Source of the DNA: an uncultured Chloroflexia bacterium
GTDB lineage: Bacteria > Chloroflexota > Anaerolineae > B4-G1 > SLSP01
Assembly: GCA_963751345.1 (NCBI GenBank)
Contig: CAVVUS010000014.1
Span: forward strand, 64,001-128,000
DNA: 64,000 nt
Direction of reading: 5' to 3'
Both the position numbers and the translations under genes were made by a program. The notes under the pieces were generated by a model. The model worked only from the letters and a program-made list of their open reading frames with translations, was not told the DNA's origin and made no database searches. This document shows positions 27,291-34,974 of the stretch, one piece after another (position 1 is the first letter of the stretch; each line of letters opens with the position of its first letter).

Positions 27291-27340
27291 GAAAGTTGGC
27301 GTCACTCTATGTGTGTACCAAAGGCCGGAGGCAGTCACGT

Positions 27341-28018
27341 ATGGCGAAGGTGTTAGTGGTCGACGACGACGAAAGACTACTCAAGATGTTGCAGCGTACC
27401 CTCTCGTATGAAGGCTTCGACGTCATCACAGCCGGCGATGGGCTCGAGGCTTTGGCGCGGCTGGGCGAGCTGCCCCCCGACGTGATCATCCTGGATTGGA
27501 TGATGCCCCGGCTTGATGGCGTGGGTGTCCTCGAGGTCCTTAACATGGAGCACAATCAGACGCCGGTGCTGATGTTGACGGCACGTGACGCGGTCCAGTA
27601 CCGTGTGGAAGGATTGGAGCGAGGAGCAGACGACTATCTGGTCAAGCCGTTTGAGCCCATCGAGTTGATCGCCCGGGTCCGTGCGCTTCTGCGCCGTGTC
27701 GGCCAGGATACGCAGACCACATTGGTGTTCGACGACCTCAGTCTGGACCCATCGAGCCGCGAAGTCAGCCGGGGAACGCGCAAGTTCGAGTTGACGCCCA
27801 CTGAGTTTGATCTCCTGCATCTCTTCATGCGCCATCCACATCAGGTATTGGAGCGTGGGCAGATTCTGTCGCAGGTCTGGGGCTATAACTTCGCCGGCGA
27901 CGACAACATCATCGAAGTCTATGTCGGCTACCTCAGGAAGAAGACCGAAGCCGAGGGCGAATCACGGTTGATCCAGACCGTCCGCGGCATCGGATATGTG
28001 CTTCGGGAGCAGATTTAG
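27341..28018 (+). CDS. OmpR/PhoB-family response regulator (MprA-like)
   Basis: REC domain (ILDWMMP, ADDYLVKPF) plus wHTH (EVYVGYLRKK, IQTVRGIGY). Confidence 0.92.
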   Translation: MAKVLVVDDDERLLKMLQRTLSYEGFDVITAGDGLEALARLGELPPDVIILDWMMPRLDGVGVLEVLNMEHNQTPVLMLTARDAVQYRVEGLERGADDYLVKPFEPIELIARVRALLRRVGQDTQTTLVFDDLSLDPSSREVSRGTRKFELTPTEFDLLHLFMRHPHQVLERGQILSQVWGYNFAGDDNIIEVYVGYLRKKTEAEGESRLIQTVRGIGYVLREQI

Positions 28019-29538
28019 TGTCTATACGGCTTCGCTTAACCTTACTCTATAGTGCGATCCTCGCACTTACCTTGATTGCGTTCAGCACGGTGTTGTACGC
28101 GACGCAAGCGCGGTACACCCTGAACATCGTGAAACGTGATCTGGATTCCAATGCCAGGCAAGTAATGCTGGCGTGGACTCGCTTCCAGACAGCTTGGGAT
28201 GCACGCGGTATGCCGCCCCGGCAGGCACCGGTCTCTCCGGACGTCTCCTATGGCGAGCAGGCTCAACAGGCTCTTCAGCCACTCGTGAGGGGTGAGCTCG
28301 CCCGTGATTCGGTTCACCTTCTCGATGCTGGAGGAGAGGCACTGGCCCTATCGATGAACGATCAGAGCCCGACGCTGCCCATCAGTCAGGAAGGATTGAC
28401 AAAGCTTCAAGCCGGCAGCGCGTGGATGGAGATCAGCCAGGGGGAGGATTCGCGATGGCTGATCTTCAACCTCCCCGTCGTCACCTCGATGACACCGCAT
28501 GCGGACGGCAGTGTCACGCCGAACGTCATCGGGATTGTGCAGCTCGCCCGCTCCCTCGCGGATCGGGACCGTTCGCTGCACTCGATGGGCATCACCCTGG
28601 TCGTAGGGAGTCTCACCACGACCGTGCTGGCCTTTGGCGCGGGGTGGGTGCTCGCCGGAACGACACTCAAGCCCATCCAAAAGATCACGGAGACGGCCCA
28701 GGAGATCGGCCAGTCGCAGGATTTCTCATCCAGGGTCGAGCACGACGGGCCGAACGATGAGTTAGGGCGGCTGGCGACGACCATCAATAGTATGCTGGCC
28801 CGGCTGGAGGGCTCATATCAACAGCTCGCCCACGCGCTGGAGGTCCAGCGCGACTTCGTTGCGGACGTCTCCCACGAGCTCAGGACGCCCCTAACCACGG
28901 TCCGTGGCAATCTCGCGCTTATGAGACATGACCCGCCCCTGCCCGCGGATGAACAGGTGGAAATCCTGGACGATCTTATCGCCGAAAGTGCCCGACTGAG
29001 CCGTCTGGTCAGCGATCTTCTGACGTTGGCCCGCGCCGACGCCGGTCACCGGCTGCCGGTGGCGCCGGTTGAGGTCGAAGGCATCGTGGATGACGTATGC
29101 CGGCAGGCCAATCTGCTCGCACCTGACCGCGAGGTCACCTGCGATTTCGGGGCGCCATCACCAAGCATCGCGAACGAGGACGCCCTGAGACAGGTGCTCC
29201 TTATCCTTACGGACAACGCGATCAAACACGGCGAGGGTCCCATCCGAATCGCCACACGAGAGAACGACCATCATATCCGTATCAGCGTACAGGACAGCGG
29301 GCCCGGCATGCCCGAGGACCTACAAGCACGGGTCTTCGACCGCTTCTATCGCGGGGACGCTTCACGCTCGACGCCAGGCTTTGGCCTGGGACTCTCGATT
29401 GCCCGCAGCTTGACAGAGGCCCAGGAAGGCACGATTTCAATGGAGAGCCAGGCAGGGGTAGGAACCACCTTCATCGTGGAGCTTCCGCAGGCGGAAGGTA
29501 ACGTGACGAGTGAGGATCTGGTATTGCCGGATGACTGA
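28018..29538 (+). CDS. HAMP-domain sensor histidine kinase (MprB-like)
   Basis: Two TM segments, HAMP, SHELRTPLT, NAIKH, DSGPG, GFGLGLSI; overlaps the regulator stop codon. Confidence 0.92.
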   Translation: MSIRLRLTLLYSAILALTLIAFSTVLYATQARYTLNIVKRDLDSNARQVMLAWTRFQTAWDARGMPPRQAPVSPDVSYGEQAQQALQPLVRGELARDSVHLLDAGGEALALSMNDQSPTLPISQEGLTKLQAGSAWMEISQGEDSRWLIFNLPVVTSMTPHADGSVTPNVIGIVQLARSLADRDRSLHSMGITLVVGSLTTTVLAFGAGWVLAGTTLKPIQKITETAQEIGQSQDFSSRVEHDGPNDELGRLATTINSMLARLEGSYQQLAHALEVQRDFVADVSHELRTPLTTVRGNLALMRHDPPLPADEQVEILDDLIAESARLSRLVSDLLTLARADAGHRLPVAPVEVEGIVDDVCRQANLLAPDREVTCDFGAPSPSIANEDALRQVLLILTDNAIKHGEGPIRIATRENDHHIRISVQDSGPGMPEDLQARVFDRFYRGDASRSTPGFGLGLSIARSLTEAQEGTISMESQAGVGTTFIVELPQAEGNVTSEDLVLPDD

Positions 29539-29539
29539 C

Positions 29540-29585
29540 GAAAAGAAACGAGTGACCGGAAGCTGATCACTCGTTTCTCGTTTCC
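29540..29585. terminator. Hairpin between the convergent kinase and RNAP-like genes
   Basis: AGAAACGAGTGA ... TCACTCGTTTCT. Confidence 0.55.
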
Positions 29586-29595
29586 GATCGACACG

Positions 29596-32500
29596 TCAAT
29601 TGTCGTGGATTGGCACCCCCACCAGCATCCGGCTCTCCACGTCGACCAGCGGATCGACCTCACCGGCTGCCGCGGCCCGGGCGAAGACGAGGCCGGGGTA
29701 TTTTGCCCTCAACGCCCGCGTCAGCACGCTGAAGCTCTTGGTCACATTTCGCTCGCGGAAGGTCGCGCCCATCTGCTCCCACTGAGTCAAGATACCGGCC
29801 AGCCCCCGTCGCGCACCCGCGACGCAGGCGAACAACTCCTCAGGCGTCAACCCCTCGCTGTAGCCATGCCGCACGATGACAACACGGCCATGCTCGTCGA
29901 CCACGGGGCCGCGCCCCGCCACGAGCCACGCCATCTGCTCCAGTCCTGCGCCGCGCGCCTTGATCATCAGGATCTGCGGCCCAAGGTCGGCGGCCGTGGT
30001 GTCCGTCATGGCAGCTAACGCTTCTTGAACGGCCTCTCCATACATCTGCCACAACGCCGAATCCGTTGAGTCGGGCCGAGAGGGGAGCGGTGTGGTCTCC
30101 CCGACGAAGGGGCTCAGGGACGCGCCAGAGACTTTGACCGTCTCGAACCCACGCTGCATCAGTCGCTCGACAGCCAGCATCGCCGCACCCACGCTCTCCT
30201 CCCCCGCTCCCCTTGGAAGCAGCTTGGAGAGTGCGTCGGTCACGGTGGCAGCCGTGACAAAACCGCCGGAAGTGTTGACCGGCTGCCCGACGATCTCCGA
30301 GATCTCCGCCAGCCCCGCCGGATCGAGGCTCAGCTTCGCCAGCCCCCAGAGCGCATCCAGCGCGGGCACCAACGAGGCAAGCAGCCCGGGATCGCGCATC
30401 AGATGGCCGGCGACGGAGAGTCGCTCCCCGGCTTCCTGCTGGGCCGCTTCCGTGATAGGCAGGAAGACGGCGGCCTGGTCGCCGTCGAAGTCGGCATCCA
30501 ACCACCTGCACAGTGCAGGATGGAGGTGAAGCGCGTCATCCGGAACCCGGACGGGATGGAACGCCAGGAGTGCGGTGGGTGTCAGGGTCGGCGCGCGGTT
30601 GATGTAGACCCACGAGTGGGCCATCACGGCGTCAAGCACCTGCGAGGCGCGCTCGCTCCTGGCTGGGACGGCCTTCCCGTCGCCGGTCTCCCGTACGACG
30701 AGGGGACCAAAAAGCGCCCACGCCATCTCCTCGGGCATGCCGATCTGTTCCAGCGTCAGCTCGGCGGCGGGCGCCAGCACCGTGCGGGCACTGAAGAGCT
30801 CGCGGGCGCCGAGCCGTAACTGGACCGGCGTGAGGAGCGCGTCGAAGAGGGCACGGACGTGGCGTTCGAGCTGCGCGGTCGCGTCATCTACCAAGGTCTT
30901 GGGCGTCTGTGCGGCGAGCATACGCCTCACCCTGTCGTTGGCCTCGACCACCGCGCGATAGAGCCGCGGGAGCTCGTCCGACGCCTCCCACCAGCCTCCG
31001 GGCGGGAAGAGTACCTCCCTGAGGCCACCAACACGTTCCCTCTCGCCCGGATCGCCGATCTCGGTCAGGCGACGCTCGGGCAGCCACGGATGGGGGACCG
31101 GTCGCGCCAGCTTCAGAGCATCCTCCTGTGGCGGCGCGAAACGGAACGCCAGGCCGTTCTCCCCCAGCTCTGCCTCGATCCCCGCGACCCGAAGCCGGTC
31201 GGCCAGCTCCGCCAACAGTGGGGTCGGCGGAGGGGCCTGGGCCACAGGACCGGCGGCCAGCCGCTCTGCCAGCGTGCCGGCATCCTGCCCGCCCACTGCC
31301 GGGTGTTCAGATTCTCGCGGATGATCTCAAAGGCGCCCAGATCCCGCAGCATGAAGGTCTCCATCTCGCCCGTGCGCTGGCCCCATCGCTCTCCCGTCAG
31401 GACCAAGCGTCACGCAGCTTGTCCTTGGCGAGATGGTACAACCGCCCCCAGTAGACCCAGCCGACGGTGCTCGGCGCGTCGAGCGGCGGGCCATCCTTGC
31501 CCTGCGTGAGCGTCACCATGCCCGACTCGGGCAATCCGGCAGCGACCAGGCGCGCGCGAAGCTCATCCGCCGAAGGCGCACCAAAGGGCGGTACGATCGC
31601 CGGGTTCGCCTCGGCCTTCGCGACGCTGCCCAGGACCGCCTCGCGGATCTGTCCGAAGTTCATCCGCCGGTGCAGGTTGGCGAAGTTGAAGACCAGGTCG
31701 ACCGGCGTGCCATCGGGAAGATGCGGCATCCGGTCGTCGGGCAGGATCTGGCCGACCACCCCCTTCGTCCCGTGGCGATTGCTCATCTTGTCGCCGATCC
31801 GGAGCGCATAGGGGGTGTCGAACCGCCGCGCGCACGACTCGCTGACGACGATGGCATCCTCGTACGTCCCCGGCCCCCAGGAGACAAAGGCCGTGAGCAG
31901 GTTGCGACCGGCCCAGAAGTCCGGCGACAGCAGGGCGTCCGGCTCGTTGCCGGTCTGAACCCACGCGGGCTCCGGCATCTGCTGCACGATCCACTGCCTC
32001 AGCATATTCGCCCCCATCAGGATGCGGTTGGGATCGTCGTGCTCCAGCAGGGGGATCATCGACGCGGAGAGCCCCAACGTCGCCTCGGGGCGCTCGTCGA
32101 CGATGACCAGCCGCCCATCTCGGACGGTCGCGCCGACGGCGATGGTGAAGACGTGGCCCATGTTCGATCCCTCGGGCACCTCGAAGGGGCAGACGTAGCC
32201 GAGCTGTCCGGGGGCGATCACGTCGTGGGCCTCCGGGACCAGGAGTCGACGAAGGTGGGTGTAATATGAAAACCAGTTGGTCTCGTCAACCGGCTGCACG
32301 GTGACAAATCGCCCTTCCGTGCCGGCCATGAACTCGGCAACCCACGTGTCGAGGGGAAGCCACGCACGGGCCAACGACGGACATCCCAGGGCAAATCGGC
32401 AGGTGCGTGCCCCAGGCGCGCCGCGACGAAATCGTAGAGCTGTTCGCCGACGCAGCGAATCTCGGCCTGATCCAGCTCCGGGCGCGAGGCGGTAGGGATC

Positions 32501-32745
32501 ACCACCCTGCGCTGCCCACCGATCTCAAAGATACCCCGCTCGTCCGGCTGGGGCAGGTCAAAGGCCACGTCCAGTGCGTCGTCGTGTGCCCCCAAGGTAA
32601 CCGCCACCCGGCATTCGTAGACACCGGTCGACTCGACGGCATAGCTGAGCAGCGGCAGCCGCTCGGCAAGCAGCGCCGGCAGCCGCTCATTCAGGAACGT
32701 ATCGTATGAAGCTTTGTGCCAGGGTGTCGACACATCAATCGTCAT
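29596..32745 (-). CDS. Miniature fused RNA polymerase beta-beta'-like protein (~1050 aa; frameshifts near 32378, 31405 and 31298)
   Basis: In order: GIFEIGGQRRVV, IRCVGEQL, DETN...THLRR, VCPFEVPEGSNMG, IPLLEHDDPNRILMGANMLRQ, YEDAIVVSE, GDKMSNRHGTKGV, RMNFGQ, GQRTGEME (beta blocks); then LYRAVVEANDRV, NRAPTL, DADFDGDQ, GLTPEELF..GARRGL, AGEVDPL (beta' blocks). Confidence 0.9.
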
Positions 32746-33362
32746 CGTATTCCTCCTCCCTTATCCCCATCTTCTTCCCACTCACGTGCCAACTGTGCCC
32801 GGGCATAATGCAATCGCGACTTTACCGTCCCCTCGGGAATGTCCAGCGCGTCCGCCGCCTCCCCGAGACTCATCTCCAACTCGTAGACGAGCCGGAAAAC
32901 CCGACGCTTCTCCTCCGACAGCTTGTTGACGAGCTGGCGATACCTCGCGCGCTCCTCCGCCTGCTCGACGGCGGCCTCCGGCCCGAGAGAACCGGCATCC
33001 ACCATCCAGGCGGGCACGCGATTGTCGGCGTCGTCATCATCGTCGACGTCCGGGGGGATCTCCAACGGAAGCTCCCGCCGCCGCTGTACCGTGCGGAGAT
33101 GGTTGAGCGCCAGATTGGTCGCGATCCGGTAGAGCCACGCCTTGAACGTGCCCTCCCCCTGCCATTGGTCGGCCCGCATCCACACCCGCAGGAAAGTCTC
33201 CTGCACCACGTCGTATGCTGCAGCTTCATCGTGAACGATGTGGAGAAGGTAAAACCGCAGCGACGTAGCATAGCGATCGACAAGCACCTCGAACGCGTGC
33301 GAGTCGCGATCGAGAATGCTAGTCACCAGGTCACTGTCGGGTACGGGCGACGCGTCTTGCAT
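32742..33362 (-). CDS. ECF-type RNA polymerase sigma factor
   Basis: Region 2 DVVQETFLRVW..FKAWLYRIATN; region 4 EAADALDIPEGTVKSRLHYAR; the stop overlaps the next ATG (ATGA at 32745-32742). Confidence 0.93.
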   Translation of the reverse strand: MQDASPVPDSDLVTSILDRDSHAFEVLVDRYATSLRFYLLHIVHDEAAAYDVVQETFLRVWMRADQWQGEGTFKAWLYRIATNLALNHLRTVQRRRELPLEIPPDVDDDDDADNRVPAWMVDAGSLGPEAAVEQAEERARYRQLVNKLSEEKRRVFRLVYELEMSLGEAADALDIPEGTVKSRLHYARAQLAREWEEDGDKGGGIR

Positions 33363-33378
33363 GATGCCTCTACTATAC

Positions 33379-33405
33379 AAGACACCGCTGGGCGCAGGAA
33401 AGTTC
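33379..33405 (-). promoter_or_regulatory. ECF-type promoter GAACTT-N16-GTCTT upstream of the sigma gene
   Basis: Minus strand reads GAACTT tcctgcgcccagcggt GTCTT, 16 nt before the ATG. Confidence 0.65.
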
Positions 33406-33459
33406 ACTACCACTTGTGTCTCTTCCCAGACGGACTAGGATAAGCACCGAGAGGCGACC

Positions 33460-34974
33460 ATGAGTGAAAACGACCCGGCAAAGCCGGACACACATCCCAA
33501 CATCATCCTGATCATGACCGACCAGCAGCGCTTCGACACCATTGGTGCGTGGGGCTATGAGCATATGATCACGCCGGCGATTGACCGAATCGCGCGGAAC
33601 GGCGTCTCCTTCAGCCAAGCCTACGCCCCTGGGGCTACATGCGTCGCGTCGCGGGCCGCAATGTTCACCGGGATGTGGCCCCACACCACCGGGGTCTACA
33701 GCTTTGACCCGTGGGCCGACCACCGCAACTGGGTTCAAGATCTGAATGACGCAGGGTACTGGTGCGCGAGCATCGGCAAGATGCACTTCAGTCCACGCGA
33801 TGTGCCGGGTGGCTTTCACGAGCGGGTGATCGTAGAGAACCCCACGAACCTGACCCTGGCCAACGGGGGGGCTGACGATGATTGGGGCCGTTACCTGAGC
33901 CTGTACGGGCTCGAGCGCCCCAACGCCCGCAACCGGTCTGACCCCGACTGGCTCGCCAAGCATCAAGGCGTCCCCTGGCATCTCGAGGAACGCTTCCACA
34001 GCGATGTCTTCATCGGCAACTCCGCGGTGGCCTGGATCAATGGCCACCGCGGCGAGCGCCCGCTCTTTCTGCAAGTAGGCTTTACAGGGCCGCACGAGCC
34101 ATGGGATCCGCTGCCACGCCACTTTGCGCTCTACGAGGGTCGCGAGCTTCCCCCCGCGGTGTGGCGCGAAGGCGAACTCGGCGAGAAGCCGCCACAGCAA
34201 GCGCGTATCAAGGAGTTCCACGCGACCACGTGGCACGAGTCGCAGATCTCGCTCGATGGCGCCTCGCCCGAAGCTATCGCCGAAATGCGGCGCCACTACT
34301 ATGCCAAGATCACGACTGTCGACGAGCAGATCGGGCGGGTGCTGGACGCATTGGAAACTCGGGGTTACCTCGACGACAGCCTGGTCGTCTTCTGCTCCGA
34401 CCACGGCGAGATGCTGGGCGATCACAAAATGGCCTACAAATGGCTGATGTACGATCCTATCGTTCACGTACCGCTGATCATCTGGGATAATCGATCCGCT
34501 GCACGGACGGGCGAGGTGCACGATCTGGTATCGCTTCTGGACATTGGCCCCACCGTGTTACAGGCCGCCGGCATCGATGTCCCCACCTACTTTGAGGGGC
34601 GCTCTCTGCTTCCGTACTTAGAGGGCGATCCAGCCGAGCCGCATCCCTACATTTTCTGCGAGGACAACTACCAGGTGATGATGCGCGGCGCGAACCACAA
34701 ACTCGTCTATTACATTGGCCAGGAAGAGGGCGAGCTTTACGATCTGCAGGAAGATCCCTACGAGCTGACCAACCTGTGGGACGATCCTACGTACGAAGCC
34801 ACCAAGACCGGCCTGCTTCACGATCTGCTCGACTGGTTGACCAGTAGCGTCTACTGGAACGCCGGCTACCGGCGCACACGTTCCCGCCATACGCAAATGC
34901 GTTGGCCGGCCCGCGGCGATGCCAACTTGCACGGTCGTTCTTCAGCGGATAATGGGCACACGGAGCGATGGTGA
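33460..34974 (+). CDS. Formylglycine-dependent sulfatase
   Basis: PNIILIMTDQQR, CVASRAAMFTG, GKMH, SDHGEMLGDH, ELYDLQEDPYE. Confidence 0.9.
   Translation: MSENDPAKPDTHPNIILIMTDQQRFDTIGAWGYEHMITPAIDRIARNGVSFSQAYAPGATCVASRAAMFTGMWPHTTGVYSFDPWADHRNWVQDLNDAGYWCASIGKMHFSPRDVPGGFHERVIVENPTNLTLANGGADDDWGRYLSLYGLERPNARNRSDPDWLAKHQGVPWHLEERFHSDVFIGNSAVAWINGHRGERPLFLQVGFTGPHEPWDPLPRHFALYEGRELPPAVWREGELGEKPPQQARIKEFHATTWHESQISLDGASPEAIAEMRRHYYAKITTVDEQIGRVLDALETRGYLDDSLVVFCSDHGEMLGDHKMAYKWLMYDPIVHVPLIIWDNRSAARTGEVHDLVSLLDIGPTVLQAAGIDVPTYFEGRSLLPYLEGDPAEPHPYIFCEDNYQVMMRGANHKLVYYIGQEEGELYDLQEDPYELTNLWDDPTYEATKTGLLHDLLDWLTSSVYWNAGYRRTRSRHTQMRWPARGDANLHGRSSADNGHTERW

Follow-up and report, generated by a model that had tools for sequence, protein, structure and literature searches.

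An extracytoplasmic function sigma factor gene conserved next to a gene for a single-chain beta-beta' RNA polymerase-like protein in Chloroflexota and other phyla

In a 64,000-nucleotide stretch of an uncultured Chloroflexia bacterium (contig CAVVUS010000014.1, positions 64,001 to 128,000; hereafter the window), a minus-strand gene encoding a sigma factor of the extracytoplasmic function (ECF) type lies directly ahead of a gene for an RNA polymerase (RNAP)-like protein, a beta-beta' fusion in a single chain that is here called the mini-RNAP. The sigma gene was found in the same position at 37 of 40 homologous loci, behind a promoter that is itself nearly invariant. From these comparisons we slightly favour a reading in which the sigma factor would be autoregulated, with the mini-RNAP as its only conserved output, and would probably also serve as the initiation factor of the mini-RNAP. 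A sequence-only reading of the window had offered two accounts of the pair, a dedicated sigma-polymerase unit or an RNAP mimic acting as anti-sigma factor or decoy; comparative genomics lends strong support to the former and the invariance of the catalytic DFDGD motif in 58 of 58 family members speaks against the latter.

Conservation of the two-gene pair

A scan of one genome per species returned 40 loci, from Chloroflexota (Anaerolineae, and Ktedonobacteria including the cultured Dictyobacter kobayashii), Armatimonadota, Planctomycetota, Verrucomicrobiota and Gemmatimonadota. At 37 of these an orthologous ECF sigma gene stands directly upstream of the polymerase gene on the same strand (phmmer E-values 1.6e-26 to 1.9e-117). 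The remaining three were not counted against linkage because the contig ends at the polymerase gene in two of them, cutting off the upstream region (L020 and L022), and the third (L030), which has no sigma gene, retains TGAACGT-N12-CGGTGTC right ahead of the polymerase start in a genome that holds a second, sigma-bearing operon, with promoter and ATGA overlap, on another contig (L084). The linkage of homologs to an upstream ECF gene, proposed earlier as a check on the pair, is therefore upheld at 37 of the 40 loci and contradicted at none. The genome with two mini-RNAP genes (G046) belongs to the Chthonomonadaceae; its copy with sigma is that of L084 (1437-2079) and its sigma-less copy that of L030 (3928-3957), beside REP-like repeats.

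Of 41 relatives, the same 5 hold both genes, and each of the four same-genus relatives holding a mini-RNAP gene has a sigma open reading frame (ORF) ahead of it; within the genus, 5 of 22 genomes carry the module, counting G000. Of 400 other genomes sampled from the phylum, two carry the sigma gene and the same two carry the mini-RNAP gene, adjacent to it in each. Additionally, the pairwise identities of the sigma factors correlate with those of the polymerase N-termini (Mantel r 0.80, with none of 2000 permutations as high), a correlation that is expected of co-inherited neighbours and says nothing on contact. Apart from shadow ORFs overlapping the sigma or polymerase gene, every other neighbour family is limited to at most 5 of the 40 loci, and no anti-sigma gene is conserved among the neighbour families of these loci; the downstream gene, in the place of the anti-sigma gene of a canonical ECF operon, is RNAP-like. 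The description of the pair as a self-contained two-gene unit without an anti-sigma gene is thus borne out. Combined, the comparisons place the pairing beyond chance and identify the two genes, at the level of sequence, as a module inherited across phyla.

The distance between the genes is less constant. Of the 27 loci with an assigned polymerase start, 16 have genes that overlap or stand no more than 11 nt apart, in 10 the gap measures 26-131 nt, and in one (L054) it reaches 968 nt. The ATGA stop/start overlap of the window (32745-32742), with GGAGGAGG just upstream (32759-32752), recurs in G002, L029, L034 and L084. Translational coupling therefore stands as a description of this locus and fails as a trait of the family. 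At L054 (3060-3989), the only such locus, a 309-aa ORF on the same strand with an alpha/beta-hydrolase-like GHSMA motif lies between the sigma and mini-RNAP genes.

The rarity of the module (2 of 400 genomes), its patchiness within the genus and its differing neighbourhoods would fit horizontal spread. An origin from mobile elements was considered and rejected, as no member of the mini-RNAP family was present in the phage, plasmid or IMG/VR collections: 33 phage records matched, none covering at least 80% of the query and the annotated ones being rpoB/rpoC; 67 plasmid records matched, again none at that coverage; and IMG/VR gave 20 weak partial matches, mostly to giant-virus bins.

The ECF sigma factor

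The ORF finder lists a 223-aa minus-strand frame with a GTG start (33413-32742). The start was assigned instead to ATG 33362 (MQDASPV...) because an alignment with 33 orthologues places it there, giving a protein of 206 aa; GTG 33413 is located upstream of the -35 box. Pfam matches comprise Sigma70_r2 (E 1.7e-16, residues 27-94), Sigma70_r4_2 (4.8e-13, residues 140-191) and Sigma70_ECF, and the families for regions 1 and 3 are absent among the six matches obtained up to E 0.01. The protein passes the NCBIfam ECF superfamily model TIGR02937 (108.9 bits against a cutoff of 42.9) and reaches no specific NCBIfam equivalog cutoff, the top model being NF009166 (122 bits against 206). With regions 2 and 4, neither 1.1 nor 3, and a length of about 200 aa, the predicted product of 33362-32742 is a genuine ECF (group IV) sigma-70 factor of a distinct clade. 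Its closest solved sequences are of the RpoE/AlgU/SigW type (6in7_B, 4.3e-34; SigW 5wuq_A, 3.6e-31; RpoE 1or7_A, 8.9e-30), and as a protein it is an ordinary ECF sigma factor. Its ratio of nonsynonymous to synonymous substitution rates (dN/dS) against the closest genome (G002) is 0.25.

Conserved motifs in the linker between regions 2 and 4 are unusual among ECF sigma factors. In this family the linker motifs PLExP, PAWxVD and LGPE are conserved, and in the orthologue alignment P99, L100, P103 and P128 vary little or not at all. The acidic tract DVDDDDDAD that the sequence-only reading had pointed out occupies residues 105-113 (33050-33024) and is kept across the family as a D/E-rich composition. 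Region 2.2 carries the motif A-A-x-D, in which x (position -2) is acidic in 18 of 34 family members versus 11 of 12 other ECF sigma factors of the same genome. The relaxation of this position accompanies the loss of three basic residues from the first clamp helix of the mini-RNAP. A comparison of 2.2 motifs with clamp helices gave no visible pattern of covariation across 17 of the 34 loci, which were matched with a short query and with kinship uncontrolled.

The operon promoter

The GAACTT-N16-GTCTT motif noticed ahead of the sigma gene (33405-33379) is present and conserved in other genomes. Its fuller form is TGAACTT-N12-CGGTGTCTT, and the aligned sites of the family give the consensus TGAACyT-N12-CGGTGTCtT, followed by a GTAGAGG box just ahead of the start codon that probably combines the transcription start region with the Shine-Dalgarno site of the sigma gene. 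The regular expression GAACNN-N15/16-GTCNN matched at 35 loci out of the 37 that bear sigma; of the two misses, the copy in L018 was recovered by eye and with a position weight matrix (PWM), and in L049 the upstream DNA is cut by the contig end. TGAAC also occurs at the homologous place in L018, L030 and L084, besides the 35 loci. A 16-nt spacer separates the two elements in 34 of the 35, and L033 has one of 15 nt. The sigma factor's own gene is thus preceded by the -35 GAAC and -10 GTC elements of autoregulated ECF promoters, and this is their predicted use.

The PWM, which was built from the 35 sites with L018, L030 and L084 outside the training set, found exactly one site per locus across 368 kb, those three loci included. 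Over the whole genome (5.4 Mb) the operon's own site scored 34.2 bits and the runner-up, in the opening codons of a coding frame (ATGAAACGTGTCCTGATCACCGGTGTC), 21.3 bits; the genome scan suggested in the earlier reading therefore leaves the operon site as the only strong match. Applied to five further carrier genomes, the pattern TGAAC-N15-GGTGTC recovered the self promoter every time, along with 0-5 other sites in each that look unrelated and lack the fuller motif, a repeat in G043 apart; the ten matches in G043 were counted as one chance event because they belong to one repeated element with identical flanks. Within the window the pattern occurs once at zero mismatches, and with at most one mismatch there are 4 sites versus 0.93 expected, a number reached by 1 of 100 shuffles. 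The motif in a single window is unremarkable by this chance test, and its weight therefore rests on its conservation in other genomes. Because the scans recover only the self site as a strong match, the operon itself is the only conserved predicted target of this promoter type.

Two observations concern promoter variants. In G043:C1 the identical multi-copy element, found at ten places (e.g., L058, L071, L074), bears a promoter-matching TGAACCCTCGGGCTACCGTAGGTGTC that shares the TGAACCC variant with that genome's own sigma promoter and could be a real target. In G002 (L017, ~11015), a 53-nt insertion relative to the window lies immediately upstream of TGAAC and contains the inverted repeat CCTTGCGAAGGTTTCCGAAACCTTCGCAAGG.

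Architecture and catalytic core of the mini-RNAP

The elements of the mini-RNAP follow the order beta1-lobe-like N-terminus, Rpb2_3, Rpb2_6, beta C-terminal motif, clamp coiled-coil, Rpb1_2, bridge helix and short C-terminus. Intact relatives have 1041-1056 aa (about 1000-1090 aa over the family), and NCBIfam scores for the rpoB and rpoC equivalogs are far under the cutoffs. The 120-aa N-terminal domain resembles B1/B2 of Mycobacterium tuberculosis RNAP beta (4kbj_A, VIA-align Z 9.0) and Thermus beta1 (3mlq_A, Z 8.5), after which nine further second-largest-subunit chains match the model. For a 1056-aa orthologue (G015), the AlphaFold2 (AF2) model reached a mean predicted local distance difference test score (pLDDT) of 90.6 and a predicted template modelling score (pTM) of 0.88; the best Foldseek matches of this model are to beta and beta' chains of bacteria and plastids, and its top 50 consist entirely of beta/beta' chains, cellular or plastid, or of their models. 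One low-confidence loop (pLDDT below 50) spans residues 571-589. A 72-nt (24-codon) in-frame length difference between the window (31021) and L017 (G002) apparently falls near this loop.

The catalytic core is well conserved. The beta' barrel motif reads DADFDGD in the window, the beta barrel signature GDK...RHGxKG is represented by GDKMSNRHGTKG, and GARRGLAG forms a bridge-helix-like segment. Over the 58 family members, DFDGD is invariant, the GDK residues are kept in 58, 58 and 56 members (first K 56/58, second K 46/58), and the RHG arginine (R323) in all 58; for the beta Glu-Asp pair the counts are 31 and 52. The coiled-coil of the mini-RNAP aligns to the host beta' clamp helices and, in the G015 model, is exposed and retained, though most of the clamp is deleted; its residues N604, R606 and R609 are kept in 58, 55 and 55 of the 58 members, and the family has other residues in place of three basic ones found in the clamp helix of the host. 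In all four polymerase pieces, as in sigma, dN/dS against G002 lies between 0.15 and 0.25.

Much of a cellular core is missing. The halves of the beta barrel are directly joined (ESCARRFDTPYALRIGDK), so that there is no flap. By eye, the trigger loop after the bridge helix and the Zn-finger/zipper region are absent and the rudder and switch-2 are shortened; with neither beta2 lobe nor full length, and an N-terminus made of the beta1 lobe alone, the protein differs from a cellular core subunit. A database search with the mini-RNAP returned 1059 protein clusters at E of at most 0.001, and the source names of the best 120 are 'hypothetical protein' or plain lists of Pfam domains.

Proposed mechanism and alternatives

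In the reading that we slightly favour, the sigma factor would recognise the conserved promoter and so autoregulate the operon, as suggested by the ECF autoregulation rule and the joint conservation of sigma and promoter. Since no other conserved promoter target was found, the mini-RNAP would be the sole conserved output of this loop. In cellular holoenzymes, sigma sits on the flap with region 4 and on the clamp helices with region 2, and these contacts set the -35/-10 geometry. The first round of transcription would be carried out by the host core enzyme with sigma, because the spacing of 16 nt is canonical and suits a normal holoenzyme, and the mini-RNAP is flapless. Sigma would then also dock on the clamp helices of the mini-RNAP, a step suggested by the retained and exposed clamp coiled-coil, the conserved linker motifs of sigma and the relaxed 2.2 position. 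Such binding, whether as a promoter-specificity subunit or by titration of sigma, we place a little short of an even chance; titration by the mini-RNAP would act as negative feedback in the usual role of an anti-sigma factor. A complex prediction for residues 1-795 of the G015 mini-RNAP with its own sigma, with alignments for each, reached scores of 0.19 and 0.18 (mark, 0.32); it was run without controls and is evidence neither way. In its most extended form, which we put forward tentatively and with the balance somewhat against it, sigma and the single-chain beta-beta' protein would be a complete, horizontally mobile, two-protein sigma-dependent RNAP that recognises its own invariant promoter, a self-amplifying orthogonal loop in at least five phyla in which the polymerase replaces the anti-sigma factor.

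Several observations weigh against the favoured reading. The mini-RNAP lacks the flap, which holds region 4, and the Zn-finger/zipper region, and a canonical holoenzyme geometry is therefore impossible on it. The relaxed 2.2 position and the substitution of three basic clamp-helix residues of the host enzyme can be read as co-adaptation or as weaker binding. A holoenzyme of sigma and mini-RNAP has no visible target beyond its own operon, which leaves its benefit to the cell unexplained, and the PWM evidence for that target is partly circular, as the matrix recovers its own training sites. Finally, in the window the polymerase gene shows three frame changes within 1.1 kb (32383, 31414-31405 and 31296; minus strand), each needing one additional base.

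Some of these points would be met if sigma worked only with the host core, as an on-switch for the mini-RNAP gene, and the mini-RNAP were sigma-free like YonO and acted on other templates or substrates. A normal holoenzyme would account for the canonical ECF promoter geometry, with its 16-nt spacer in 34 of 35 loci, and would ask for no flap on the mini-RNAP to hold region 4; the PWM and pattern scans also revealed no second promoter of the same type on which sigma and mini-RNAP could act together. YonO is not known to need a sigma factor. PMC5467207 describes it as a single-chain enzyme of about 100 kDa. We nevertheless consider this explanation rather unlikely, since the exposed clamp coiled-coil has been kept, with N604, R606 and R609 almost invariant, despite the deletion of most of the clamp, the sigma linker carries conserved motifs, and the strict co-inheritance of a private sigma factor in five phyla exceeds what a promoter needs. 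The retained clamp helices are also compatible with a catalytically irrelevant mimic that would sequester sigma, as an anti-sigma factor or decoy, or would decoy inhibitors of the host enzyme; the mini-RNAP does occupy the operon slot usual for ECF anti-sigma genes, and no other negative regulator is conserved nearby. A pure decoy or anti-sigma mimic is disfavoured because all 58 members keep the Mg-binding DFDGD unchanged, and GDK, the RHG arginine, the bridge helix and the two-barrel fold are conserved as well; an enzyme fold of 1000 aa under purifying selection (dN/dS 0.15-0.25) goes far beyond the needs of a decoy, which makes this explanation very improbable.

Frame breaks in the assembled polymerase gene

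The RNAP-like frame that starts at the ATGA is open for just 175 aa in this assembly, and the polymerase frame, broken three times, is split over four pieces; the breaks had escaped the sequence-only reading. In a tblastn search with the G015 protein, residues 1-121, 123-443, 450-481 and 487-1054 aligned in frames 3, 2, 1 and 3. Relative to G002, the window has +2 nt near 32383, +1 and +1 near 31414/31406 and -1 at 31296, and G002 in turn has a separate 1-nt insertion in its polymerase gene. Of the 40 loci, 25 read through the whole match without interruption, 8 stay open as far as the contig reaches and 7 are broken; six of the broken ones bear names of the type 'MFD... contig_N', the seventh is an isolate assembly, and none of the 32 loci with NODE_, k141_ or scaffold-style names is broken. 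This naming pattern, in which the link from name to method is inferred, hints at an assembly-method artefact of long-read consensus errors.

Assembly error at the breaks is the explanation that we slightly favour for this copy of the module. Contigs of a ~94%-identical strain, from four public DNA runs in which nothing of the same strain was found, are in frame at all three break sites but, coming from another strain, do not decide whether the breaks of the window are real. The dN/dS of 0.15-0.25 in every piece points to purifying selection on the polymerase gene for nearly all of its divergence. A decaying remnant, in which the mini-RNAP would be a true pseudogene and sigma an orphan autoregulator, is the less probable account. 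It would explain why three frame changes, each short of one base, fall within 1.1 kb, why the sister genome G002 has a separate break, and why the other 3-3.5 kb genes of the window are intact (1008 and 1176 aa unbroken), an observation that counts against assembly error. On the other side, the dN/dS of each frame piece means that any inactivation would have to be very recent, and neither the in-frame contigs of the related strain nor the concentration of breaks in 'MFD... contig_N' loci (6 of 7, with none among the 32 others) is expected of decay. Tiling of ORFs and of third-position G+C content (GC3) to count frameshifts elsewhere in the window was tried and discarded, as overlaps of open frames are common in G+C-rich DNA and hence not diagnostic.

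Two loci show irregularities of their own. In the isolate assembly of Dictyobacter kobayashii (L042), two in-frame TGA codons (5987 and 6014) lie in a locally out-of-frame stretch of ~30 codons upstream of the DFDGD barrel. In a Phycisphaerae locus (L056, 3386-5047), sigma is split over two frames, the first of which continues into the polymerase gene, and the polymerase has three further frame changes.

Comparison with known systems

The pair resembles the RpoE-RseA, SigW-RsiW and AlgU-MucA operons in having a sigma factor with regions 2 and 4 only, and canonical ECF operons generally in having a GAAC -35 and GTC -10 before the sigma factor's own gene and one co-transcribed conserved partner. 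It differs from them in that the partner is an RNAP-like enzyme of ~1050 aa instead of an anti-sigma domain or membrane protein, that no anti-sigma gene is conserved near the sigma gene, and that the promoter matches its own operon only. Absence of an anti-sigma gene and alteration of the acidic 2.2 motif, which contacts beta', are shared with ECF groups such as ECF43, which is activated by a Ser/Thr kinase (PMC8999054); unlike in ECF43, no kinase or regulatory extension is conserved here and the 2.2 change is only partial (acidic in 18 of 34).

YonO of the Bacillus prophage SPbeta, a single polypeptide of ~100 kDa (PMC5467207, in part), is like the mini-RNAP a single chain with both double-psi barrels and many cellular modules missing (PMC5467207 and PMC2919709, available portions). 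YonO is very distantly related to beta/beta' and phage-borne, whereas the mini-RNAP, much the closer of the two to bacterial beta/beta', matches Rpb2_6 (5.5e-40) and Rpb1_2 (3.7e-20) and keeps the beta1 lobe and clamp helices; the mini-RNAP is also chromosomal, with a private sigma factor, and was found in none of the phage, plasmid or IMG/VR collections. Orf6 of the yeast killer plasmid pGKL2 is an Rpb2::Rpb1 fusion of ~980 residues with about half of each parent deleted, and shares with the mini-RNAP the reduced single chain and the order of beta-like then beta'-like parts (PMC2919709, as far as its text was available). It differs in residing on a eukaryotic cytoplasmic linear plasmid, deriving from eukaryotic subunits and having no sigma factor. 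Natural rpoB-rpoC fusions (NF011417, NF007172) also carry beta then beta' in one chain and are the best partial NCBIfam matches (9.3e-52), but these profiles of 2839-2890 positions describe complete housekeeping enzymes, and the match scores 175 bits versus a cutoff of 4632.

If the sigma factor is a subunit of the mini-RNAP, the pair would be categorically new. To our knowledge, bacterial sigma factors have been described solely as subunits of the ~400-kDa, five-subunit core enzyme, and we know of no single-chain two-barrel polymerase (YonO, killer-plasmid Orf6, crAss-type) that uses a sigma factor. A two-protein unit of sigma and beta-beta' would be the smallest sigma-using transcription machine known, and a one-chain enzyme of ~115 kDa with a sigma factor would make minimal sigma-dependent initiation testable without flap, trigger loop, alpha or omega. 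Such a system would also represent a new control of ECF sigma factors, with an enzyme partner in place of the anti-sigma factor, would bear on how far the large RNAP subunits can shrink or how they were built up, and would supply synthetic biology with a compact orthogonal set of sigma factor, polymerase and promoter. Even if sigma were only the on-switch of the mini-RNAP gene, a widespread family without assigned function would gain a clear regulatory handle.

The literature searched contained no account of an ECF sigma factor in a pair with a beta-beta' mini-RNAP, and the available portions of PMC2919709, PMC7824862 and PMC8999054 hold none. In the main text of PMC7826278, the terms Rpb, RpoB, RpoC, beta subunit, Chloroflexi and polymerase-like have 0 occurrences; its supplementary group tables could list such a context.

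Locus layout

The operon is bounded by a divergent sulfatase gene and a convergent kinase gene with a hairpin (Table 1), all of which were located by Pfam or folding where the sequence-only reading had put them. The hairpin (29579-29543) folds at -25.3 kcal/mol (z -3.04; 1 of 200 shuffles folds as well); it is absent from the output of a simple terminator scan and was revealed by folding.

Table 1. Features of the sigma/mini-RNAP operon and its flanks (window positions)
Feature	Position	Strand	Basis or remark
-35 element TGAACTT	33400..33406	minus	GAACTT at 33405-33400
Extended -10 element CGGTGTCTT	33379..33387	minus	GTCTT at 33383-33379; 16-nt spacer from GAACTT to GTCTT
Leader box GTAGAGG	33367..33373	minus	4 nt before sigma ATG; block gTAGa(GG) conserved across loci
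ECF sigma coding sequence	33362..32742 (stop TGA 32744-32742)	minus	206 aa; Pfam r2 + r4_2 + ECF
Sigma2-sigma4 linker	32976..33050	minus	acidic tract aa 105-113, PAWxVD aa 117-122, LGPE aa 126-129
Predicted mini-RNAP Shine-Dalgarno site GGAGGAGG	32752..32759	minus	within sigma 3' end, 6 nt before mini-RNAP ATG
ATGA stop/start overlap	32742..32745 (ATG 32745-32743, TGA 32744-32742)	minus	read from sequence
Mini-RNAP piece A, beta1-lobe-like N-terminal domain	32383..32745	minus	AF2 pLDDT 88.9
Mini-RNAP piece B, beta fork and double-psi barrel (GDKMSNRHGTKG), no flap insert	31400..32382	minus	Rpb2_6 5.5e-40, Rpb2_3 5.1e-8
Mini-RNAP piece C, beta C-terminal motif GQRTGEMETFML	31297..31399	minus	frame reading
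Mini-RNAP piece D, beta end, clamp helices, beta' barrel DADFDGD, bridge helix, stop	29596..31296	minus	Rpb1_2 3.7e-20, Rpb1_1 positions 230-278
Terminator-like hairpin, 15 bp, 3' of mini-RNAP stop	29543..29579	minus	RNA folding
Convergent histidine kinase	28018-29538	plus	HATPase_c, HisKA, HAMP (Pfam)
Divergent sulfatase	33460-34974	plus	Pfam Sulfatase 8.9e-48

The histidine kinase and a response regulator are encoded in the window by two overlapping ORFs (27296-29538). At the corresponding locus of G002 (L017, 4802-7027), response regulator and kinase share a single open frame of 742 codons, which may be a fusion or another assembly indel.

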